Origin: a virus
Taxonomy: Duplodnaviria; Heunggongvirae; Uroviricota; Caudoviricetes
IMG/VR virus record: IMGVR_UViG_2778261030_000021
Span: 1 to 7,900 of that record
DNA: 7,900 bases
Strand: one strand, 5' to 3'
This document shows, in pieces, positions 1 through 7,900 of this stretch. How positions within the stretch are numbered: the stretch's first letter is position 1; every line of letters begins with the position of its first letter. The translations under genes and the position numbers were made by a program. The notes under the pieces were generated by a model that saw only the letters and a program-made list of their open reading frames with translations, did no database searches and was not told the DNA's origin.

Positions 1-744
1 GGAAGGTTTAATTACCTGCAACGTACCAAAATCACGCTCTTTGTCGTTCTTCTCTGCACGGGGTACGGATAAAAAGCCTTTTGCTTTTTTGTCACCGTCG
101 CCCACAACCAGATCGCTTTCTTCGGTTTCCGTGAAGGTGTCGCCAATCTCGCCCGTCAGCCATGAAAGGATGTCCACATCGGAAAAATCCACGATTTCCT
201 GCGTGGTGCGCGGGTACGCATAGACCGGATACAGCTTAATGCTCACCTCGTTAATCTGCGGGGTGCTGGTCTGTTCGCGTGCCTTACCCTCTTCACCGTG
301 GTTAACGGTCGCACCGCCAGCGGAAACAAGCTGCTTAAACTCGTTGCTGCTGATTTTCTTCACGGTACAGATGCGGCGCATGGTGGATTCATCCGTCAGC
401 ATTCGCATGATTTCGGTGTTCAGTTCGGGGATAACGGTATAACCACCATCAGCGGGAACGCCTGTACTCAATGCGCGGGTTTCACCTGTCAGAATGTAGT
501 GACGTAGTTCGGCGGGGTCAGTGGTCTGGCTGTTTTTGCCTGGTTTACTGCGCTCTTCGTCAGCAACGGCCTCAAGGCGGGAGATGTCTTTATCGAGTGA
601 TTCAGCTTTAGCGCGTAATTCGTCAAATTTTGCGCCCTCAGCATCGTTAAGGCTGCGGTTTTCTTTTTCCGCGTTCTCCAGCATGTCGCGCATCTGATTT
701 TTAATGGCGGTTTTCTGCTGGCGTAATTCGATTATTCTCGGCAT
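1..744 (-). CDS. Major capsid protein, HK97-fold family (N-terminal ~248 codons; 3' end beyond window start)
   Basis: Minus-strand frame is open from ATG 744..742 to position 1 with no stop, so it is absent from the ORF track. Own translation: MPRIIELRQQKTAIKNQMRDMLENAEKENRSLNDAEGAKFDELRAKAESLDKDISRLEAVADEER... then ...GGYTVIPELNTEIMRMLTDESTMRRICTV...INEVSIKLYPVYAYPRTTQEIVDFSDVDILSWLTGEIGDTFTETEESDLVVGDGDKKAKGFLS. An N-terminal coiled coil followed by these motifs matches my recollection of HK97-type capsid proteins. AGGA lies 8 nt upstream of the ATG. Confidence 0.65.
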   Translation of the reverse strand, partial: MPRIIELRQQKTAIKNQMRDMLENAEKENRSLNDAEGAKFDELRAKAESLDKDISRLEAVADEERSKPGKNSQTTDPAELRHYILTGETRALSTGVPADGGYTVIPELNTEIMRMLTDESTMRRICTVKKISSNEFKQLVSAGGATVNHGEEGKAREQTSTPQINEVSIKLYPVYAYPRTTQEIVDFSDVDILSWLTGEIGDTFTETEESDLVVGDGDKKAKGFLSVPRAEKNDKERDFGTLQVIKPS

Positions 745-781
745 AAAAAAAGTCCTGGGGTTAAGTAAGGAACTCCAGGAC
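745..781 (-). promoter_or_regulatory. Hairpin (stem 752-758 / 775-781, GTCCTGG/CCAGGAC) followed on the minus strand by U7 (751..745) and then the capsid ATG; the capsid Shine-Dalgarno AGGA lies inside the 3' arm
   Basis: Directly read inverted repeat plus T-run. The geometry is that of an intrinsic terminator, but it ends 1 nt before the start codon and sequesters the RBS. Confidence 0.45.
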
Positions 782-956
782 GCGGCAAAAACTCAACCGT
801 TTTTCATAAGGAAATCAGCAATCGCACCGATCGTTTTCCCGCCTGGTAATGAATATTGGCGAGAACATTAACAGGCGGAAAAGTGGCCCCAGCGTCCTGG
901 CACCACGGGCGAGAATAATCATGATTCAGTTCGGGTAAAATATGCCGATCCGCTCA

Positions 957-986
957 GTGAACAACGTGGAACAACCACGAACAAAT
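957..986. repeat. Three 10-bp-phased direct repeats: gtGAACAACg / tgGAACAACc / acGAACAAAt
   Basis: Directly read; copies begin at 959, 969 and 979. Lies in the ORF-poor region upstream (minus-strand sense) of the capsid gene. Confidence 0.5.
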
Positions 987-1003
987 AATTTACAAAAAAT
1001 GAC

Positions 1004-1025
1004 AAAAAGCCGGATTTCTCCGGCT
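1004..1025 (-). terminator. Intrinsic terminator after the 74-aa gene (7-bp stem AGCCGGA/TCCGGCT, 4-nt loop, U-rich tail on minus strand)
   Basis: Hairpin 1008-1025 and A-run 1004-1008 on the plus strand give hairpin-then-U on the minus strand, 11 nt downstream of the stop at 1036-1038. Confidence 0.6.
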
Positions 1026-1035
1026 GTATGGGTGC

Positions 1036-1260
1036 TCAGTCCCTGATCCCTTTCAGAAATTCTATCAATGCATCTATCTGTTCAGGATTTACCGCCAGCA
1101 TTTCACCGGATAGAGCACATCTCACAAAACCATGCTGATCCTTTTCAATCAGTGCGCCCGTCTCCAGGAATGCGCGGTAATCATTGATGCTCATCGTCTC
1201 CATGTTGTCAGCATGGTATTTATCACGCTGTTTTAATATCTCATCAAATTTCATCGGCAT
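1036..1260 (-). CDS. Hypothetical acidic protein, 74 aa
   Basis: ATG at 1260 with AGAGGA about 9 nt upstream; own terminator downstream. No family recognised. Confidence 0.5.
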   Translation of the reverse strand: MPMKFDEILKQRDKYHADNMETMSINDYRAFLETGALIEKDQHGFVRCALSGEMLAVNPEQIDALIEFLKGIRD

Positions 1261-1356
1261 TGTTTTTTTCCTCTGTTGTGTCTGTTTGTTTCAGATAGTA
1301 ACTATGCCTGACCGTGACGAAAACCCGGTAATGCGCCATACCGTTTCAACTGGTGC

Positions 1357-1380
1357 AAAAAAAGCCGGATTTCTCCGGCT
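1357..1380 (-). terminator. Intrinsic terminator after the PerC-like gene; near-identical copy of the 1004-1025 terminator
   Basis: Same AGCCGGATTTCTCCGGCT hairpin (1363-1380) followed on the minus strand by U7 (1357-1363). A 24-bp core is shared between 1004-1027 and 1360-1383. Confidence 0.65.
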
Positions 1381-1386
1381 GTTTGA

Positions 1387-1659
1387 TTAGCTGTCCTGGT
1401 AATTGCGCCATATTTCATCACCAGCACCATCTATACCCATTTCGGCATAAGTGCGATCGACTGCCTTTTTCAGGTCTCCGAAATTATCCGGCGGCTCCGG
1501 TGCCCTCTGTGCCTTCCTTGAACATTCCAGCCGTCGCATCGTGATGTGATGCCGTTCCTTGTCTGTCTCCACCAGCTGCATGACTTCACCCCATCGCGCC
1601 GCCGCCCTCCGGTAAAAGCCTTTCGCCTCCAGTTCCTCCGCTATGCGGTCATGTACCAT
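1387..1659 (-). CDS. PerC-family-like small transcriptional activator, 90 aa (start moved to ATG 1659; the track ORF begins further upstream at a non-ATG codon)
   Basis: MVHDRIAEELEAKGFYRRAAARWGEVM... resembles the AEKLExKGLWRRAA signature I recall for PerC/Pch proteins. Strong SD GAGGGGGGG immediately upstream of ATG 1659. Confidence 0.5.
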   Translation of the reverse strand: MVHDRIAEELEAKGFYRRAAARWGEVMQLVETDKERHHITMRRLECSRKAQRAPEPPDNFGDLKKAVDRTYAEMGIDGAGDEIWRNYQDS

Positions 1660-1669
1660 CGTCCCCCCC

Positions 1670-2080
1670 TCAGAACGAAATATCATCACCGTAAGGGTCA
1701 TCGCCTCCCGCTGGTGGCTGATTACCCTGTGTGCCTGTGGTTTTGCGTCTGTTCCCGCCTGGACGTGCCGCGCGGGCACTGATTACGCTGTCTGCGATAA
1801 CCTGCCAGCCCTGCCGCGTTTCTCCGTTCTGTCCGGCCCACTGGCTTACCTGCATCGTGCCGGATACGCTGGCAACATCGCCTTTTTGATGTTTAGCCAG
1901 GAAGTCGGCCTGTTTGCCAAATGCGATGACCGATAACCATAACGTCGCCTGTCCGTCCTGTGCCTGGCTGCATGGCAACGATACCGCCATACGCGCCAGC
2001 GTCATCGGTGTGCCCTTGCTGGTCTGTTTTACCTGCGGGTCGTCCACCAGCCGCCCGTAAGCGGCTATCTGTGCCGTCAT
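1670..2080 (-). CDS. ssb: Single-stranded DNA-binding protein (SSB-like OB fold), 136 aa
   Basis: Pattern GRLVDDPQV...TLWLSVIAFGKQADFLAKHQKGDVASVSGTMQVSQWAGQNGETRQGWQVIADSV aligns by eye with E. coli SSB (G.L..DPE...W..V.FGK.AE...KG..V..G....W.D.G.R), and the acidic tail DDPYGDDISF resembles the SSB C-terminal DDDIPF tip. ATG 2080 with GAGAGGTGG SD; start overlaps the upstream stop (ATGA). Confidence 0.75.
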   Translation of the reverse strand: MTAQIAAYGRLVDDPQVKQTSKGTPMTLARMAVSLPCSQAQDGQATLWLSVIAFGKQADFLAKHQKGDVASVSGTMQVSQWAGQNGETRQGWQVIADSVISARAARPGGNRRKTTGTQGNQPPAGGDDPYGDDISF

Positions 2081-2322
2081 AATTCCACCTCTCCGGTTTT
2101 AACGTTGATGGTTGTTACCTGTTCCGCTTCGGCAATCTCCCGTTCTGTCAGCGTGGCAAAGTTTGCCGCTGCTGTGGTCATGAATGCGCTTATCAGTTCG
2201 GGATGTGCTTTCGCGTATCCTTCCCCGGCGTTGCGGTCGATGATTTTTATCGCCACCCTCAGCCAGTGTTCTGTCAAATCAAGGGCGTGAGATTGTGGTT
2301 TTTTGGCGTGCTTCGTTGTCAC
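2077..2322 (-). CDS. Hypothetical protein, 81 aa (GTG start)
   Basis: Codon at 2322..2320 is GTG with GAGGT about 9 nt upstream; stop overlaps the ssb start. No family recognised. Confidence 0.45.
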   Translation of the reverse strand: MTTKHAKKPQSHALDLTEHWLRVAIKIIDRNAGEGYAKAHPELISAFMTTAAANFATLTEREIAEAEQVTTINVKTGEVEL

Positions 2323-2367
2323 AGGCTTTACCTCACAGCAATAAAATAAAATTTTTGCATTTCAACC

Positions 2368-2597
2368 CTTCACCTGTTCACCTTTTGCAATTTTCCCTTT
2401 TTATTCATGATGTTAAGGGGTGAACAGTTTCACAAAAACTATTCACCAACTGTTCACCACTGTTCACCCTTAAAGCTCAATAAAGAATCAAAAAGGTGAA
2501 CAGTGAATAGTTTGGTGAACAGTTCATAAATAACTGTTCACCCTATAATATACTGATATAAAAGACATTTATTGCAGGCTGAACAGTGGTGAACAGT
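2368..2597. repeat. Iteron array: at least 9 full copies of the octamer TGTTCACC / GGTGAACA in both orientations plus partial copies; putative replication origin (P4 ori/crr type)
   Basis: Directly read: TGTTCACC at 2375, 2451, 2461 and 2536; GGTGAACA at 2419, 2495, 2514 and 2589; partials at 2368, 2441, 2503 and 2579. The array starts 13 bp beyond the primase stop. As I recall, TGTTCACC is the type I iteron bound by P4 alpha protein. Confidence 0.7.
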
Positions 2598-2609
2598 TAT
2601 TCCATAAGT

Positions 2610-4427
2610 TTAATTTTTTCCATCGTCATTTGTGACCGATGCACATGATGGCATCCAGTCTTCTGAATCCTCTGTCAGGGTCACATTTGAACGCAAACCG
2701 TGCTTCGTTTTCCGTTTCATATACTCCCTGCCATATTCCGCCATTGCCCCCGGCATATCTTTACCGAAGCGCGTCAGTGTTACAGGTTTACCGAATCCGT
2801 GTGCCCTCATATATGCCAGATAGGCGTGATAAAGATACCTGCGCGGACTGAACGGAATAATTTCGGCATTACCCACTAACAGACCATCACACATTACCGA
2901 CGACATGAGATAGCCGCAGAAGTCCACCAGCGAATCGCCCTCGCGTTTTATCACCAGAGCTTCTTCTGATTTCTGCTGCTCATACAGCAGGCGTTTAGCT
3001 TCGTCCTGGTCAGAAAAACGAGTAAGCAGGTGGCGAATCACAACCGCCAGCTCTCCTTCTATTTTTTCTGCCAGCATGGGGTCGCGTTCGTTTTCCGGTA
3101 CAACCTCCGAAAAATTGAATATCACCCGACGACGTGAAATCCCCCCGCTGCGGTCACTGAATGACATGGCGTTATTGTTCACCGCCAACACTACCGCCTG
3201 AATGCGTGTTGAGTAGGGGGCTTTATGCTTCGGGTCGATTGCCACCTTGTCACCGCCTGTAATGGCCTTAATTCCTGCGCCATCACCAGCGTAACGGGTC
3301 ATATCCGGCATGATAATCAGCGAAAAGCCAACCACTAACGCGCGTTCCCTGGCATCTTCCAGCGCCTTCATGCTTGCCGATACCGTGTTGGCCTTACCCG
3401 CCAGCATGGTGCAAATCTCCGCCATCACGCTTTTACCACTTCCCCCTGGACCTGTTACCTCAATGAATAACTGCCAGTCGTACCGGTTCGCCAGCACCAT
3501 GAATAATGCAGCCAGTACGCGATCCGCCTTGCGGTCATTCTCAGCCACCGAACGGCGTAACCACTTCCAGAAATTCGGCGCATGTGTTGCCAGCGTTTCC
3601 CCCTCTGCTGGTGGGCTGAAAGGTAATTCACTGGCAATTAACAACCAGTCGTTTTTGTTATGCTCCCGAAAATTACCTGTTCTGGTATCAAATACCCCGT
3701 TACTGAATCCAATCAGGTTACGGGCTGTATTCCCCATTACAGGCAAACTTAACTTCATGGTATCGACCGCCGATTTAATGGCGTTCTGCGAATAGCTGAT
3801 CTCCGCATCAATGAAAATCTGTGCCATAGCTCGCTGTAATTCTTTATCCTGTACTGGCTCCCATACAACGCCGTTGTAATGGTGAACAGTGTCAGAGTCA
3901 GCATGAATCGCCAGTTCACCGCCATAATGTGCCAGGAGAACTTCGCCGCGTTGACTTGCTCCCATCTGGTTAAGCGCCAGTGATGAAGCGTTATCGTCTT
4001 TTACCCGCTCTTTTTTCTTTACAGGCAGTTCAACTACCTTTTTCTTTTCCGCCTGCTCTGCCCGTTCACGTTCCAGATATTCGCGCCAGTTCTCCCGTTT
4101 CTGGCTGTGCATTCCTTCAGGGTAATAATCAGCATCCCTGACACCTGCCGCTGCCAGTTTCTGCCCGATGGTATTAACAAGCCCCGGACGCAATAACCCC
4201 GCCTGGTAGAGACGCACCCGATAGCGTCCGTCCGGTACGATTTGCAGCTTATCCAGTTCGGCAAGTTGTTGTTCTCCAAGCCAGACAGGAGGCACGCTGT
4301 CGCCAGCCAGTCGCCCGTCCTGTTCCTGCCACTGCTTCGCATGTGCCCACGCATCATTACCCGCAAAAATGATGACTTCCGTCATTTTGTCACGCGGCTG
4401 GTGTTTTAAATTTGGCGCTTTTTTCAT
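2610..4427 (-). CDS. Replication primase-helicase of the P4-alpha / D5 (SF3 helicase) family, 605 aa (start moved from track position 4442 to ATG 4427)
   Basis: Walker A TGPGGSGKS within a D5-like region. The track ORF begins at a GTG (4442); the first ATG (4427..4425, MKKAPNLKHQ...) has GGAGAGAG upstream and overlaps the stop of the preceding gene (ATGA). Confidence 0.85.
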   Translation of the reverse strand: MKKAPNLKHQPRDKMTEVIIFAGNDAWAHAKQWQEQDGRLAGDSVPPVWLGEQQLAELDKLQIVPDGRYRVRLYQAGLLRPGLVNTIGQKLAAAGVRDADYYPEGMHSQKRENWREYLERERAEQAEKKKVVELPVKKKERVKDDNASSLALNQMGASQRGEVLLAHYGGELAIHADSDTVHHYNGVVWEPVQDKELQRAMAQIFIDAEISYSQNAIKSAVDTMKLSLPVMGNTARNLIGFSNGVFDTRTGNFREHNKNDWLLIASELPFSPPAEGETLATHAPNFWKWLRRSVAENDRKADRVLAALFMVLANRYDWQLFIEVTGPGGSGKSVMAEICTMLAGKANTVSASMKALEDARERALVVGFSLIIMPDMTRYAGDGAGIKAITGGDKVAIDPKHKAPYSTRIQAVVLAVNNNAMSFSDRSGGISRRRVIFNFSEVVPENERDPMLAEKIEGELAVVIRHLLTRFSDQDEAKRLLYEQQKSEEALVIKREGDSLVDFCGYLMSSVMCDGLLVGNAEIIPFSPRRYLYHAYLAYMRAHGFGKPVTLTRFGKDMPGAMAEYGREYMKRKTKHGLRSNVTLTEDSEDWMPSCASVTNDDGKN

Positions 4428-4723
4428 TTCTGCTCTCTCCACGCGGCAATCATGTTTTTCAGTTCCTGTAGTTTTTTATCAACATCCATACATGACACAT
4501 GGTTATTTCTGGAAAGCGGGATTTCCCGCCTGAATCTGCTAATAAAGATCTCCACGTTCAGCGAACTATGAAATGAATAGCCATCACGAATAAAATACAC
4601 ACGGTCAAACATCAGTTCTTTTACCGTTACTCTGTTACCGTTCTTATCCAGATAAATAGCGCCGGGGATAATTTTGGGGTGTGCATAACCGCTGGCAGTC
4701 AAGCCAGATAAATACGTTCTCAT
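4424..4723 (-). CDS. Hypothetical protein, 99 aa, translationally coupled to the primase
   Basis: ATG 4723; stop TGA overlaps the primase ATG. No family recognised. Confidence 0.55.
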   Translation of the reverse strand: MRTYLSGLTASGYAHPKIIPGAIYLDKNGNRVTVKELMFDRVYFIRDGYSFHSSLNVEIFISRFRREIPLSRNNHVSCMDVDKKLQELKNMIAAWREQK

Positions 4724-4729
4724 GATTAT

Positions 4730-5050
4730 TTATCTCAGATTTGAATCAGTATTCGCTTTCTCTATGGCATTTAATGCATCTGTGGCATTTTCAATGGTGC
4801 ACCGTAACGAAATATCAAACTGCCCAAGCATTGCCAGTAACAAGCCAATATTACCCATGTCAATGCGCATAGCCTTTTCGTCATATTCCTCATTTTCTGA
4901 CGCATGCCACATCAGGCTACCAATTGACGAAACAGCCATTGATATATTGTCAGTAGCCCCATCCGCAGCGGAATAAACCTTTTTAGCAATATCATGCTCA
5001 CAGTTAAAATGCGGATTAATCAGGTACTGGTAATTGGTCATGTCAGGCAT
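4730..5050 (-). CDS. Hypothetical acidic protein, 106 aa
   Basis: ATG 5050..5048 overlaps the end of the upstream small gene. Strongly acidic composition (about 17 D/E against 7 K/R). Confidence 0.55.
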   Translation of the reverse strand: MPDMTNYQYLINPHFNCEHDIAKKVYSAADGATDNISMAVSSIGSLMWHASENEEYDEKAMRIDMGNIGLLLAMLGQFDISLRCTIENATDALNAIEKANTDSNLR

Positions 5051-5246
5051 GGAACACCCCCTGACGAATACGGGCGGCGAATACCATCACGCAGCCATCA
5101 GGAGATTGCTGACGCGCGTCCTGTTCGCTGGTGGCCTCAATGGTAATCACGCGCGGTTGTGCCGTGCTCAGGGCGATAAAACGCCAGATGTATTTATTCA
5201 GGTTGTGCGAGTCCCGCCCTTGCGGGTGTGTGGTATGATTTAACAT
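5043..5246 (-). CDS. Small first gene of the leftward operon, 67 aa (possibly Icd/Kil-like; function uncertain)
   Basis: ATG 5246..5244 with GAGGT 5-6 nt upstream; MLNHTTHPQGRDSHNLNKYIWRFIALSTAQPRVITIEATSEQDARQQSPDGCVMVFAARIRQGVFHA. It is the C-terminal 67 codons of the 341-aa track ORF, which I reject as a whole. The Icd-like guess rests on position only. Confidence 0.5.
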   Translation of the reverse strand: MLNHTTHPQGRDSHNLNKYIWRFIALSTAQPRVITIEATSEQDARQQSPDGCVMVFAARIRQGVFHA

Positions 5247-5342
5247 AGCTACCTCGATATTCTTGCTATCGTTGGTGGTTAGACGCCCGGTTAGTGTTAG
5301 CGCACTGCCGGGTTTCGTCGTTTCTGCACCTTGCATCAACAA

Positions 5343-5396
5343 GGTGTTTAACACCAATTTAAGCCCTGGTGTTAAACACGTCAAGTGTTGAACACT
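5343..5396. promoter_or_regulatory. Three 13-bp palindromic operator-like sites (G/A)GTGTT-N-AACAC(C/T) in the divergent promoter region
   Basis: Directly read: 5343-5355 GGTGTTTAACACC (perfect), 5368-5380 GGTGTTAAACACG (one mismatch), 5384-5396 AGTGTTGAACACT (perfect). The third overlaps a plus-strand -35-like TTGAAC (5388-5393), with a weak -10 CATACT at 5411-5416. Confidence 0.55.
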
Positions 5397-5445
5397 TATT
5401 TTTTTTCCTGCATACTGCATTTGTTTTTTGTAAGGGGTACACAAC

Positions 5446-5625
5446 ATGGCGACAAAAGCAGTAAACGCAAAATCACAAACAGTTGCGGCAAGGGTTCCGC
5501 ATGAAGTTATGAACAATGTTGAGGCGGTAAAAATGCCTGGTGAAAGTACAGGGCAGTTTGTAACAGCAGCATTAAAGCGAGAAGTTGAATACCGCCAGCG
5601 TCGCAAGGCCAAAGAGCAGGAATAA
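5446..5625 (+). CDS. Small DNA-binding protein, probable ribbon-helix-helix fold, 59 aa
   Basis: Below the track's size cut-off. ATG 5446 with AAGGGG 8 nt upstream; MATKAVNAKSQTVAARVPHEVMNNVEAVKMPGESTGQFVTAALKREVEYRQRRKAKEQE. Beta-strand (TVAARVP), helix, Gly turn, helix pattern typical of Arc/CopG-type proteins. Confidence 0.5.
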   Translation: MATKAVNAKSQTVAARVPHEVMNNVEAVKMPGESTGQFVTAALKREVEYRQRRKAKEQE

Positions 5626-5682
5626 CCATCACCAGCGCCGTGGTGTAAGGTATTACGGCGCATTGCTATGCAGGACAACACA

Positions 5683-5856
5683 ATGACCGATAAAGAATTG
5701 ACCAAAACATTATCACCGGCACGGAAAAGACGGCGCAGAAAGATAGAGCATGAATCAGAAAGATTCGCGCCATGTGCTTTTGCCCTTGAGCAATTCCTTA
5801 AAGAGTACAGGGAAAAGCGCTCATTGCAGGTATGGCAACGAACTGAACCAGACTGA
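5683..5856 (+). CDS. Hypothetical Arg-rich small protein, 57 aa
   Basis: ATG 5683 with AGGA 7 nt upstream (the track's longer ORF starts at 5668). Contains ARKRRRRK; rare AGA/AGG/CGG codons. Confidence 0.4.
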   Translation: MTDKELTKTLSPARKRRRRKIEHESERFAPCAFALEQFLKEYREKRSLQVWQRTEPD

Positions 5857-5950
5857 TAGCATTGCCCACCAGCCTGATAGCGACTATCATTGCCGTTCTT
5901 ATGTTTGGGATCACACACACAAACGGCGCAGCGGGTTATCTGTTCAGAAA

Positions 5951-5979
5951 GGCGGCTCCATTTCGGGGCCGCTTTTTTT
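5951..5979 (+). terminator. Intrinsic terminator of the plus-strand two-gene unit
   Basis: Stem 5952-5959 GCGGCTCC pairs with 5965-5972 GGGGCCGC (one G-U), 5-nt loop, then T7 at 5973-5979. Confidence 0.7.
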
Positions 5980-6120
5980 ATTCCTGAAAAACCCCAATTT
6001 TGTTGTTTTTCAGTTTCACCAGGGCGAACGAATCCCCGCCCACGTTCGGGCGCATATTCAATCTTCATGGTTATATCTCTGTATTAGTGGATGTGTGGCG
6101 GCTGCGTGCCGCCAGCGTGA

Positions 6121-6309
6121 TTAATGAACTGCCTTGCAGCTATCCTTCCAGGCCAGAACCTCGGATAAAGACCAGCCAACGGAACGACCGCCAAGTTTAC
6201 GACGTGATGGGAATTGTCCGGCCTTTTCCAGGCGGTAGCGGCATGAGCGGCTAAGGCCTGTTAGCTTTTCGCATTCTTTTTCACGTATAAACCGATCAGT
6301 GCTTAACAC
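6121..6309 (-). CDS. alpA: AlpA-family phage transcriptional regulator / excisionase-like HTH protein, 62 aa (GTG start)
   Basis: EKLTGLSRSCRYRLEKAGQFPSRRKLGGRSVGWSLSEVLAW matches the AlpA signature I recall (TG.SRST.Y......FP....LG.R.V.W...E...W). GTG at 6309..6307 with AAGGGG 5 nt upstream; no in-frame ATG is available. Confidence 0.8.
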   Translation of the reverse strand: MLSTDRFIREKECEKLTGLSRSCRYRLEKAGQFPSRRKLGGRSVGWSLSEVLAWKDSCKAVH

Positions 6310-6590
6310 TATTGCCCCTTTCGTTTCTTAAAGAGTTATTTCGTGTTCTATTGCGTTGGGATGTGTCTGATTGTGTCAGGATGATTCAGAGTTGGCAAAT
6401 GTTGAGGACGTATGGTTTACAGAAAGAGGAATAATCAGGATAAAATCATTTAAATTCATGTTAATACAAAGGCATAAAATATTGTTTCATGCCTTTTTTC
6501 TCGCTATTTAAAGAGTGATTCGCTAGTGTATAAAAAACCAGTAACACATTAAAAATCAGCCACTTATAAATCTGTACACTTTTTCGCCTC

Positions 6591-6640
6591 TTGTTCGTAG
6601 TTGTTCCGCATTGTTGCTCATTGTTGCACGTTGTATCTGT
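6591..6640. repeat. Five 10-bp-phased direct repeats beginning TTGTT (TTGTTCGTAG / TTGTTCCGCA / TTGTTGCTCA / TTGTTGCACG / TTGTATCTGT)
   Basis: Directly read, exact 10-bp register, between the integrase stop and the alpA upstream region. Confidence 0.5.
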
Positions 6641-6649
6641 TCGCATATC

Positions 6650-6665
6650 CAGTATGCGCATACTG
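6650..6665. repeat. Perfect 16-bp palindrome CAGTATGCGCATACTG
   Basis: Directly read. Lies 18 bp beyond the integrase stop and is flanked by A/T runs. Confidence 0.55.
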
Positions 6666-6682
6666 AAAAAATACGAAAAAAA

Positions 6683-7900
6683 TTATTTTCTTCTGGCTAC
6701 TGGTAGCGTGGTTACGTTTTCATGTGTTCCCGCCAGTATCCCTAACCGCTCCATCCACATATCCAGCGCATTGCGTTTAGCATCCAGATAACGGGAATGA
6801 TTATAAACTCGCTGCATTCCTGGCATCTGGTGGCCTGTAAGCTGCTCCACGACATGCGGATCAACGCCTAAATCGTTCAGCATGGTTGTAAAGGTGCGCC
6901 GGATGTCATGCAGTGACCAGTGAGGGTGATTAAGCCTCCTGTGCGCTAATCTTCCATACTGCGATACGCTGGCCTCCTGTTTCACTGCCCCCAGCAATAA
7001 GCCCGTGTGCCTGTTCTGCTCCACCAGCTGCGTGACGAACGGCAGGATCGCTTCCGGTATGGGCCGGAATATTGCGACCTTCGTTTTGCTGTGCTCCTTC
7101 GGAACGGTCCATAGCATTTCCGTAAAATCCCACTCCCCGATCTCTGATAACCTCAGTTCTACCGTTCTGGCTCCGAAGACAATCAGGAGGCGGATTAACG
7201 CGACGTAGTAAGGGGAAAATATTTTTTTATCCAGCGCCTGCAATAACTCGCCCAGTTCTTTGGTGCTTAAGACACGTTCGCTTATATCCGGTTTTTTCCC
7301 AACGTCCGCCACGTTCAGATCGTCCAGAACGTTGCTGATTGCATAGCGCCGCCTACGGCAGAACTTAAGCGCCTGTTTGCACGCCTGTAGCACGAATCCG
7401 GCAGTAACAGGCGTTCGCTTTGCCACCTGGTCAAAACAGGCCAGCCAGTGCCGTAGCTCGCATTTATCCAGCGGCATAGCACCAATCTGCTGTATTACGT
7501 GATTATTAAGTCGCCTTTTCAGGGCGATATAATCCACGCGGTTTTCCTTTACGTAAGACTCAAGCCAGTAGGTGAGCGCATCGCCAACCGTTACGGGCTT
7601 TAACGCTTCCTGTACGGTGTAATTCATCTCATGACGTGGATTTTTCCCCTCAGCCAGCCATGCGCGGCACTGGGCGGCTTTTTCCCTGGCTGCTTTCAGA
7701 CTCAGATCAGGATAATTTCCCAGCTTAATACGTTCCGGTCGTGTCTCTCTTCCCGTTCCTGCCCTGTAAGTGAAATACCAGGTTAATTTCCCTGATGTTA
7801 AATATTTCACGCTCAGATTTCCGCCATCGCTATAAAACGTGTTTTTCTCCGCTGGCTTACCATGAAGTTTCCTTAGCAATGTGTCGCTCAGTTTGTTCAT
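6683..7900 (-). CDS. int: Tyrosine recombinase / phage integrase (P4-type), 405 aa
   Basis: 405-aa ORF starting with ATG exactly at the window edge (the true start could lie upstream). Integrase-like C-terminal region including HDIRRTFTT and the tail ...MQRVYNHSRYLDAKRNALDMW with candidate catalytic Tyr. Confidence 0.88.
   Translation of the reverse strand: MNKLSDTLLRKLHGKPAEKNTFYSDGGNLSVKYLTSGKLTWYFTYRAGTGRETRPERIKLGNYPDLSLKAAREKAAQCRAWLAEGKNPRHEMNYTVQEALKPVTVGDALTYWLESYVKENRVDYIALKRRLNNHVIQQIGAMPLDKCELRHWLACFDQVAKRTPVTAGFVLQACKQALKFCRRRRYAISNVLDDLNVADVGKKPDISERVLSTKELGELLQALDKKIFSPYYVALIRLLIVFGARTVELRLSEIGEWDFTEMLWTVPKEHSKTKVAIFRPIPEAILPFVTQLVEQNRHTGLLLGAVKQEASVSQYGRLAHRRLNHPHWSLHDIRRTFTTMLNDLGVDPHVVEQLTGHQMPGMQRVYNHSRYLDAKRNALDMWMERLGILAGTHENVTTLPVARRK

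Follow-up and report, generated by a model that had tools for sequence, protein, structure and literature searches.

A candidate attenuator-type leader RNA ahead of the capsid gene in a capsid-forming chromosomal island of Escherichia coli

The capsid gene and its leader

The stretch analysed here, i.e., the window, comprises 7,900 nucleotides (positions 1 to 7,900 of the virus record IMGVR_UViG_2778261030_000021) and is a capsid-forming phage-inducible chromosomal island (cf-PICI) of Escherichia coli. Every substantial open reading frame (ORF) of the window is carried by the minus strand. The subject of this report is the leader RNA of the HK97-type major capsid gene, which is the first gene of the packaging operon. 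This leader probably gates the capsid output of the satellite. From sequence comparison and computed folding, it appears as an attenuator-type leader without a leader peptide and as a candidate new family of cis-regulatory RNA. The features of the leader and the gene that it precedes are listed below, with the basis of each in brackets (MFE, minimum free energy; SD, Shine-Dalgarno sequence).

1..744, minus strand: 5' part of the HK97-type major capsid gene, within which the window ends (Pfam Phage_capsid, E=6.8e-27; RefSeq annotation of NZ_AP027191)
745..751, minus strand: U7 tract, which is also the spacer between SD and AUG (sequence; conservation in leader type A)
752..781, minus strand: hairpin P3, with a 7-bp GC-rich stem, a 16-nt loop and a 3' arm, CCAGGAC, that holds the SD (sequence, folding, conservation)
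775..783, minus strand: segment Y, GCGUCCUGG, which covers the 5' arm of P3 and can partner X or the SD arm (inverted repeat, conservation)
835..882, minus strand: hairpin P2, a long spacer hairpin, UUUUCCGCCUGUUAAUG...CAUUACCAGGCGGGAAAA (MFE, covariation)
883..906, minus strand: hairpin P1, the 5'-terminal hairpin GUGGUGCCAGGACGCUGGGGCCAC with a GACG loop (MFE, conservation, RNAalifold; single copy in the window)
892..900, minus strand: segment X, CCAGGACGC, i.e., the inner 5' strand of P1, its loop and one more base; putative anti-terminator or anti-anti-SD (inverted repeat, conservation)

The initial annotation had placed a hairpin directly at the capsid start codon, and this was borne out on the letters with exact coordinates. 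On the minus strand, GTCCTGG (781-775) pairs with CCAGGAC (758-752), the SD, AGGA, lies inside the 3' arm at 756-753, and U7 at 751-745 abuts both the stem and the ATG (744-742). The minus-strand sequence from the hairpin to the start is GCCGCGUCCUGGAGUUCCUUACUUAACCCCAGGACUUUUUUUAUG. The P3 stem has 7 bp, five of which are G-C. The 49-nt hairpin segment folds with -14.1 kcal/mol (z=-4.2), and none of 200 dinucleotide shuffles folded as well, in agreement with the stable terminator hairpin that had been assumed. In the full-leader ensemble, the AGGA of the window is unpaired with a probability of only 0.007, and the folding model thus supports P3 as a hairpin that would hide the capsid SD. The GC-rich stem-loop is directly followed by a U-tract of at least five residues, which is the anatomy of an intrinsic terminator. 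The chances that P3-U7 truly terminates in vivo are judged to be even.

Relatives, covariation and folding

Relatives were sought with the capsid protein and with an alignment of six homologues (A1). Loci were fetched from genomes (12), metagenomes (80) and IMG/VR (80), and two E. coli islands were added through BLAST. About 165 related capsid loci were compared, and the set of relatives holds 141 unique 320-nt upstream regions. Three leader types can be aligned over the stretch that begins at a conserved box ahead of the RNA and ends at the ATG, i.e., type A, which is that of the window (29 loci, 22 unique), type 2 (about 117 loci), and type 3 (5 loci). These types share one architecture of 5' hairpin P1, variable P2, and SD-proximal P3. 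Further classes were not alignable with the three, i.e., a type 4, a Gilliamella-like type, others, and one with a short unstructured leader.

Of 5,426 complete E. coli genomes, 433 carry the leader, and in 360 of these the match spans 80% of its length or more. Related leader types were also seen in Citrobacter, Erwinia, and Rosenbergiella and in numerous metagenomic contigs, and P1 and Y are very strongly conserved across genera. When 50,697 phage records were searched by BLAST, the type-A leader had no match and the type-2 leader had three, i.e., the cf-PICI vB_KppS-Ant (16.5 kb), a Salmonella fragment of 3.8 kb that has no annotation, and a Klebsiella phage record of 106 kb. The 16.5-kb record (locus L176; LR881103.1, 'Escherichia phage vB_KppS-Ant') is a complete cf-PICI that was deposited as a phage, and its capsid leader is of type 2. 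One of its ORFs (2036-4333) bears the annotation of a tail tape measure protein, which would not be expected in a cf-PICI. In Rfam 15, no match at E<=10 was found for the leader, neither for the subtype of the window nor for type 2 (queries were the whole window, the leader alone, and a type-2 leader). No conserved ligand-binding core was recognized in the alignment of types A, 2, and 3, where conservation lies in the helices with two partners and not in the junctions.

All 29 type-A loci show GTCCTGG, a 16-nt loop, (C/T)CAGGAC, T7-8, and then ATG, and in two of them a C->U change retains the pairing as G-U. A divergent member, L046 (contig SKEG01003675.1), has an altered loop and a stem lengthened to 10 pairs by paired changes. 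This contig carries the leader type of the window, with terminator hairpin and T8, ahead of a capsid gene only 69% identical to that of the window; promoter and leader thus seem to be exchanged by recombination as one module, separately from the capsid gene. In types 2 and 3, P3 is GGUUUC/GAAACC, which still covers the GGA of the SD, and the U-tract is absent. Because the U-tract is confined to type A, the terminator would be an addition in that E. coli lineage. The property common to the family is the masking of the SD together with a competing upstream partner.

The hairpin P1 keeps its GACG tetraloop as GUGGUGCCAGGACGCUGGGGCCAC in type A, GUGGCACUCAGACGUGAGCCGCCAC in type 2, and GUGACACUCCGACGGGAGCCGUCAC in type 3. 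Among 46 representatives, 99% of the cells in P1 are paired, and 5/9 pairs are altered on both sides. P2 varies freely in sequence and length; in the same representatives, nine of its ten outer pairs are altered on both sides, with up to five pair types. When the partners in these hairpins were slid by 1-3 columns as a control, pairing fell to 36-49%; over all slid-partner controls, the range was 27-49%. Both hairpins were also predicted de novo by RNAalifold.

The initial annotation had further pointed to a 9-mer at 775-783 with an exact reverse complement at 892-900, and these segments, i.e., Y and X, were recovered independently in an inverted-repeat search. When the 218-nt upstream leader was dinucleotide-shuffled 20,000 times, a complement of at least 9 nt to the 5'-arm region arose with a frequency of 0.00095, so the complementarity of X and Y is unlikely to be due to chance. 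The X:Y pairing is CCAGGACGC with GCGUCCUGG, plus GGC with GCC, in type A; AGACGUGAGCC with GGUUUCACGUCU, i.e., 11 pairs with one bulge, in type 2; and GACGGGA with UCCCGUC in type 3. The GACG/CGUC core is invariant across the three types and its flanks change compensatorily. The energies of these duplexes range from -16 to -25 kcal/mol.

The four core pairs of X:Y (columns 18-21 with 145-148) are complementary in 46/46 representatives. Column 22 is informative, as it has one partner in each helix. With column 144, in X:Y, it forms UA in 39, GC in 4, and CG in 3 representatives, and with column 17, in P1, the pairs are AU in 38, CG in 4, and GC in 3. Column 22 thus keeps two partners through three states, which fits selection on two mutually exclusive helices. 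G-U pairs are found on the sense strand only, e.g., at columns 25/141 in 43/46; they would be A-C mismatches on the other strand, and the structure therefore belongs to the sense RNA. X:Y takes up the 5' arm of P3 in every type and can coexist neither with P3 nor with the inner stem of P1. A check that had been named for the complementary segments, i.e., their conservation in homologous elements, came out in their favour, because they are kept with compensatory changes in every alignable leader type. The comparison supports X as a real and conserved competitor of the P3 hairpin. In type-4 leaders (L039, L128, L131, and L133), the sequence is unrelated, and again three mutually complementary segments are found, one of which covers the SD. 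It is our judgement, held with good confidence, that the leader is a functional and selected structure with two alternative pairings.

The advantage of the ensemble with P3 over that with X:Y in full-length leaders is 6.8 kcal/mol for type A, 3.3 for type 2, and 8.7 for type 3. The MFE structure includes P3 in 15/15 type-A, 66/81 type-2, and 5/5 type-3 leaders, and in type 2 the SD has a probability of about 0.03 of being unpaired. Among seven cf-PICIs with short unstructured leaders, this probability exceeds 0.9 in three and is 0.39-0.61 in four, two of which are mis-anchored. The initial annotation had expected X:Y to abolish the terminator and free the SD. When X:Y was forced in the window, the first part held and the terminator was lost; the second did not, as the SD stayed mostly in a weaker local hairpin with an unpaired probability of 0.08. 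In L003, the same constraint gave 0.52.

A different picture was obtained from transcripts grown base by base. In the window and in L003, the MFE structure contains X:Y once Y is complete, and it flips from X:Y to P1 and P3 about 16-20 nt later, when most of the SD arm has been added. The fold with P1 and P3 is best at full length and X:Y is best in the nascent RNA, so the growing transcript passes a stage where the fold that opens the leader is optimal. In this model, reaching that fold would depend on the speed at which Y invades the pre-formed P1. An 11-nt exact inverted repeat between 920-910 and capsid codons 2-5 (740-730), which was used in the first MFE structure, was rejected because it shows uncompensated changes in many relatives and its 5' arm lies upstream of the predicted transcription start. 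This repeat, 730-740 / 910-920, was judged to be due to chance.

Promoter, trigger and rival explanations

The features upstream of the leader, and those on which its control may depend, are as follows.

815..922, minus strand: 35-codon ORF of the initial annotation, judged not to be a functional leader peptide
912..917, minus strand: predicted -10 element TATTCT (conservation; implied start about 906-904)
934..939, minus strand: predicted -35 element TTTACC (conservation in 84 upstream regions)
959..984, minus strand: three TTGTTC hexamers with 10-bp phasing, a putative regulator-binding array (hexamer scan)
985..999, minus strand: conserved upstream motif TTTTTTGTAAATTAT (single copy in the window)
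1003..1025, minus strand: T2, intrinsic terminator of the upstream 74-aa gene, AGCCGGAGAAATCCGGCT plus T-run (terminator scan)
6591..6626, plus strand: four TTGTTS hexamers with 10-bp phasing between int and alpA, inverted relative to the capsid array (hexamer scan)

For the promoter, 84 unique upstream regions were aligned with the first G of P1 as the anchor. A -35-like TTTAC lies at -33..-29 from P1 (each T 0.99, C 0.82), and a -10-like element lies at -11..-6, i.e., T(0.99) A(0.99) T(0.94) n T(0.87) T(1.0), with a spacer of 16 nt. The elements of the window have 8/12 consensus matches, just under the threshold of the promoter scan, which independently picked the homologous TTTACA-16-TATGTT in the related locus L014. 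A conserved sigma-70-like promoter of the capsid operon is therefore predicted, with a start at about 906-904, i.e., at the first bases of P1. Further upstream, the motif TTTGTAAAT was found in 115/141 unique leaders, and its distance from P1 is a fixed 87-89 nt in all three alignable types. T2 forms the 5' limit of the capsid control region.

The distance of 87-89 nt between the motif TTTTGTAAATTAT and P1 is constant, whether the interval holds phased repeats only, as in the window, or an added terminator hairpin. In L003-type islands, the terminator hairpin between the motif and P1 overlaps the -35 position. T1 (1359-1385, after the PerC gene) and the copy at T2 (1004-1030, after the 74-aa gene) are 27 nt long and 96% identical. 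With positions 600-1400 of the window as query, E. coli matches break exactly at 1004-1030 (query coverage 1-431 or 405-801), and the terminator thus appears to act as a recombination junction between island modules.

Phased pairs of TTGTTS occur in the window only at 959-984 and 6591-6626, i.e., five pairs against 0.28 expected, and 0/200 shuffles reached five. The bases between the hexamers are alike in the two arrays by eye. Both arrays probably bind one island regulator, with AlpA as the suggested candidate. They would link the control of the capsid promoter to the control region of alpA. In L176, there is a fuzzy resemblance between repeats near the capsid promoter and phased repeats that precede an alpA-like gene. 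A 66-aa ORF (6661..6461) overlaps the array at 6591-6626 and is probably spurious. AlpA is the master activator of Gram-negative PICIs (PMC6092414). In PICIs, the helper phage induces the expression of AlpA, which acts as an activator, and the AlpA of EcCICFT073 activates its own promoter (PMC6092414). From this autoactivation and the shared arrays, AlpA may also activate the capsid promoter.

The initial annotation had offered the helper phage as a possible trigger of the switch. This is unlikely, as cf-PICIs have been reported to yield DNA-filled tail-less capsids without a helper, even in non-lysogens, and capsids of EcCIEDL933 were produced through overexpression of alpA (10.1101/2025.02.11.637232). 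A helper-encoded factor acting on the leader RNA is therefore not required. A partner in trans for P1 or X was also sought within the window, and none was found. CsrA-type GGA sites and ANTAR/RAT-type hairpins, considered by inspection only, were dropped, as these motifs were not common to the leader types.

The mechanism that we propose is as follows. A sigma-70-type promoter of its own (939-934, 917-912) would start the capsid and packaging operon near 906, and the 5' untranslated region of about 162 nt would be an attenuator-type RNA switch. In the OFF state, i.e., at equilibrium, P1 (906-883), P2 (882-835), and P3 (781-752) would all be formed and the SD would be buried. In the E. coli subtype, RNA polymerase would then tend to terminate 1-7 nt before the AUG, and mRNA from read-through would be poorly translated. 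In the ON state, X (900-892) would pair with Y (783-775), which would dissolve the inner stem of P1 and the terminator. No leader peptide would take part. The trigger that we favour is a co-transcriptional and kinetic choice: X:Y would be the best nascent fold after Y emerges and before the SD arm exists, and the outcome would hang on the invasion of P1 by Y in that interval. The speed or pausing of the polymerase, or a factor binding P1, could influence it. That the capsid and packaging operon has its own promoter and attenuator-type switch, and works as proposed, is in our judgement moderately likely.

Several points weigh against this proposal. The ON fold is 3-9 kcal/mol less stable than the OFF fold, and in the window the SD remains in a weak hairpin when X:Y is forced (unpaired probability 0.08). 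Masking of the SD is incomplete in subtype 2b (e.g., L014, with an unpaired probability of 0.45), and some cf-PICIs have no structured leader. The loop of P3, 16 nt, is larger than in typical strong intrinsic terminators, and P3 was not called in the terminator scan because this loop exceeds the range of 3-8 nt that was scanned. The compensatory changes come from few independent events, i.e., about 3-5 lineages, and X, Y, and the SD arm are nearly invariant within a type. Moreover, much capsid protein is needed and cf-PICIs are reported to form capsids spontaneously, so the leader can be no tight off-switch.

Other explanations were weighed on the same evidence. The leader might have one static fold and no switch, where P1 is a 5' stabiliser, P2 a spacer, and P3-U7 a fixed leaky terminator or translation damper that insulates the capsid operon from upstream transcription, while X:Y is a tertiary contact (a pseudoknot that keeps the outer stem of P1) or reflects shared ancestry of X and the SD arm. 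Such a fold agrees with P1 and P3 as the predicted ground state in 15/15, 66/81, and 5/5 leaders, and in type 2, as read from alignment A2, X abuts the 3' strand of the outer stem of P1, an arrangement like that of an H-type pseudoknot. The terminators T1 and T2 that interrupt the region farther upstream are also in keeping with a static fold. It is rather unlikely, however, as column 22 covaries with both columns 17 and 144, i.e., the P1 inner stem and X:Y are both maintained yet cannot coexist, X:Y excludes the 5' arm of P3 in every type, and the MFE structure of the nascent transcript is X:Y. An improbable alternative is that P3-U7, T1, and T2 are ordinary terminators overridden by a processive antitermination factor loaded at the promoter, as lambda Q is at PR'/tR' or Pseudomonas AlpA at PalpB/tB, so that RNA pairing is secondary. 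Three terminator-like elements stand in series on one strand, AlpA is encoded on the island, the phased arrays tie the capsid promoter region to the alpA region, and the AlpA of P. aeruginosa is an antiterminator whose targets have terminators just upstream of the first ORF (PMC7969949). That protein has eight helices, with an N-terminal ring resembling 21Q and a C-terminal helix-turn-helix (PMC9371919). The PICI AlpA, however, has 62 aa and the Phage_AlpA domain only, and when the AlpA of the window was compared with PDB chains by phmmer, P. aeruginosa AlpA was not among the matches at E<=1. The EcCICFT073 AlpA was described as an activator of its own promoter (PMC6092414), and types 2 and 3 keep the logic of X, Y, and SD without a U-tract. 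The -35/-10 spacer is partly conserved (A-16, T-15, and G-14) and a leader terminator is present; no binding motif is known with which the spacer could be compared. The differences in size and architecture weaken the case for AlpA as a Q-like antiterminator.

The 35-codon ORF (922..815) had been regarded in the initial annotation as reminiscent of attenuation. In a model of this kind, ribosomes on this frame would open P1 and free X for Y. The open frame exists, without an SD as had been noted, it covers P1 and P2, and 35 codons are kept in 20/22 unique type-A leaders. The proposed role did not stand. The ATG (922-920) corresponds to A-16, T-15, and G-14 from P1, i.e., it lies inside the predicted promoter spacer, between the conserved -35 and -10 elements and upstream of the predicted start. 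It is absent in 22/99 type-2 leaders, and the ORF has 35/44 codons in type A, 10 in type 2, and 15-17 or a run-through in type 3. Indels in L046 and L107 shift the frame, and no run of regulatory codons was found. A leader-peptide model is unsupported by an ATG in the promoter spacer and an unconserved ORF without SD, and we hold it to be very improbable. The main product might instead be a trans-acting small RNA of about 160 nt, from P1 to P3-U7, that arises from the capsid promoter upon each termination and acts on targets of the host, the helper, or the island. A predicted promoter, a 5' stem-loop, and a Rho-independent terminator are the anatomy of a small RNA gene, and a ProQ/FinO-domain gene lies two genes upstream in some related islands. 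Against this, types 2 and 3 have no U-tract and so would not release such an RNA, no target was found, a copy or complement of P1 was not found elsewhere in the window, and Rfam gave no match; a cis-acting switch would stay compatible with such an RNA. We consider this quite improbable as the main function. Finally, the complementary segments might act as DNA, i.e., as a cos/pac site, an origin, or a protein-binding palindrome, in line with the very strong conservation of P1 and Y across genera. This is scarcely to be expected, since G-U pairs occur on the sense strand only, the segments are about 110 nt apart, and iterons of the origin type are found at another place, 2370-2602. In the related element vB_KppS-Ant, the linear genome that is packaged starts beside terS, and its ends place cos there and not in the capsid leader; the reading of the leader as a cos site was rejected on this ground.

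Island context and comparable systems

The remaining genes of the window that bear on its nature are listed here.

7900..6683, minus strand: tyrosine integrase (ORF list / Pfam)
6309..6121, minus strand: alpA, 62 aa (Pfam Phage_AlpA, E=5e-18)
4442..2610, minus strand: D5-type primase (ORF list / Pfam)
1670-2080, minus strand: SSB gene (ORF list / Pfam)
1387-1779, minus strand: PerC-family protein, 130 aa from GTG in the mechanical ORF (Pfam)
1260..1036, minus strand: 74-aa protein, phrog_1957 (PHROG match)

A cf-PICI is defined as an island of about 10-15 kb that has int, alpA, and primase/rep together with an HK97-type module of capsid, protease, portal, connectors, HNH, TerS, and TerL, and that lacks genes for tail and lysis (10.1101/2022.09.08.507074). 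The Pfam matches and the matching RefSeq island together give int, alpA, primase/rep, and a complete HK97-type head and packaging module. Positions 600-1400 of the window (801 bases queried) recur at 100% identity in an island that is inserted in tqsA of E. coli 10153 (NZ_AP027191). On that island, the capsid gene is followed on its 3' side by prohead protease, portal, head-closure and connector proteins, HNH, TerS, and TerL, and tail and lysis genes are absent. This layout is that of cf-PICIs such as EcCIEDL933 (10.1101/2022.09.08.507074).

Several observations concern the neighbouring genes. RefSeq gives 90 aa for the PerC-family ORF in the matching island, the Pfam match begins at residue 41, and the 130-aa form overlaps the SSB gene (1670-2080). 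PerC accompanies 28/29 type-A loci; these loci are close relatives, so the association is not independent. In the slot of PerC, two genes upstream of the leader, a ProQ/FinO-domain RNA-binding protein was found in L015 (5192-5734) and in eight type-2 loci. The 74-aa phrog_1957 protein showed no consistent co-occurrence with the structured leader, being found within 1.5 kb in 71/117 type-2 and 15/29 type-A loci.

The iterons GGTGAACAGT / ACTGTTCACC occur in at least nine copies, in both orientations, at 2370-2602 of the window, where they flank an AT-rich core. The region lies within the 288-nt gap after the primase gene and is almost certainly the replication origin of the island. The related island L176 has GTGAACA iterons at the equivalent position. 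MicroRNA-like Rfam matches at 2424-2537 are accounted for by these iterons. A weak Rfam match to the SymR antitoxin small RNA was found at 5247-5319 on the plus strand (28.4 bits, with a gathering score of 61; E=0.036). It is antisense inside a long ORF (5043..6068), which the matching RefSeq island splits into small genes, one of them Icd-like.

The leader resembles several known systems in part. Like the trpL, hisL, and pheL attenuators, it has four segments, which pair as 1:2 (P1) and 3:4 (P3 with the U-run) or as 2:3 (X:Y). These pairings are mutually exclusive, with the terminator as 3:4, and the decision would likewise fall while the polymerase is between segment 3 and the U-tract. Unlike these attenuators, it has no conserved translatable peptide or regulatory codons, segments 2 and 3 are set apart by a long and variable P2, the terminator directly precedes the AUG with the SD of the regulated gene as its 3' arm, and the U-tract is found in one leader subtype only. 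As in the ermC and cat leaders and in translational riboswitch platforms, the SD lies in a hairpin whose 5' arm has an alternative partner upstream. Unlike in those, there is no leader peptide, conserved ligand-binding junction, or Rfam match, and P2 is freely variable.

Long-range pairing is also known from phages. The Min Jou interaction of MS2 is opened by translation of the upstream cistron, and com-mom of Mu by the dedicated RNA-binding protein Com. The leader is like both in that pairing over a range of about 100 nt would decide the access to a start region, and in its connection with late or morphogenesis functions; unlike in both, neither an upstream-cistron opening nor a Com-like protein is assigned to it. 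Winged-helix regulators of the P2 Cox / P4 Vis type bind phased direct repeats, a likeness that concerns the promoter region and not the leader RNA. The repeats described here are similar in that they are phased by 10 bp and lie upstream of a late promoter and in the control region of the regulator itself. The AlpA of the window is in the same Pfam family as Vis-like excisionases and regulators, and its binding to the arrays is putative.

A terminator in the leader of a late or structural operon is also shared with lambda PR'-6S RNA-tR' and Q, and with P. aeruginosa PalpB-tB and AlpA (PMC7969949, PMC9371919). A regulator named AlpA in the same element adds to this likeness, as would a short RNA as the default product. 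Unlike lambda Q and P. aeruginosa AlpA, the PICI AlpA is a 62-aa winged-helix protein without a Q-like N-terminal ring, and unlike in those systems the anti-terminator is written into the leader RNA itself and is kept even without a U-tract. In the cf-PICI and PICI literature that was searched, no promoter, terminator, or antitermination was mentioned for the packaging module, and no Rfam family or paper describing the leader was found in Rfam 15 and a full-text literature search.

The cf-PICIs have been described only recently. They release DNA-filled tail-less capsids without a helper, so what sets their capsid output is a live question. The leader brings to it a concrete and widely conserved control region, with a predicted dedicated promoter, island-specific phased repeats, and a leader with two exclusive folds. 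A further reading, which we put forward as a tentative possibility, is that the leader is a factor-independent co-transcriptional timer, or a sensor of an island or host factor, that sets the rate of helper-free capsid production, that in the E. coli subtype an abundant RNA of about 160 nt (P1 to U7) with a function of its own is released, and that the phased arrays put the promoter under AlpA. If this were true, capsid output would need two decisions internal to the island, one made on DNA and one on RNA.

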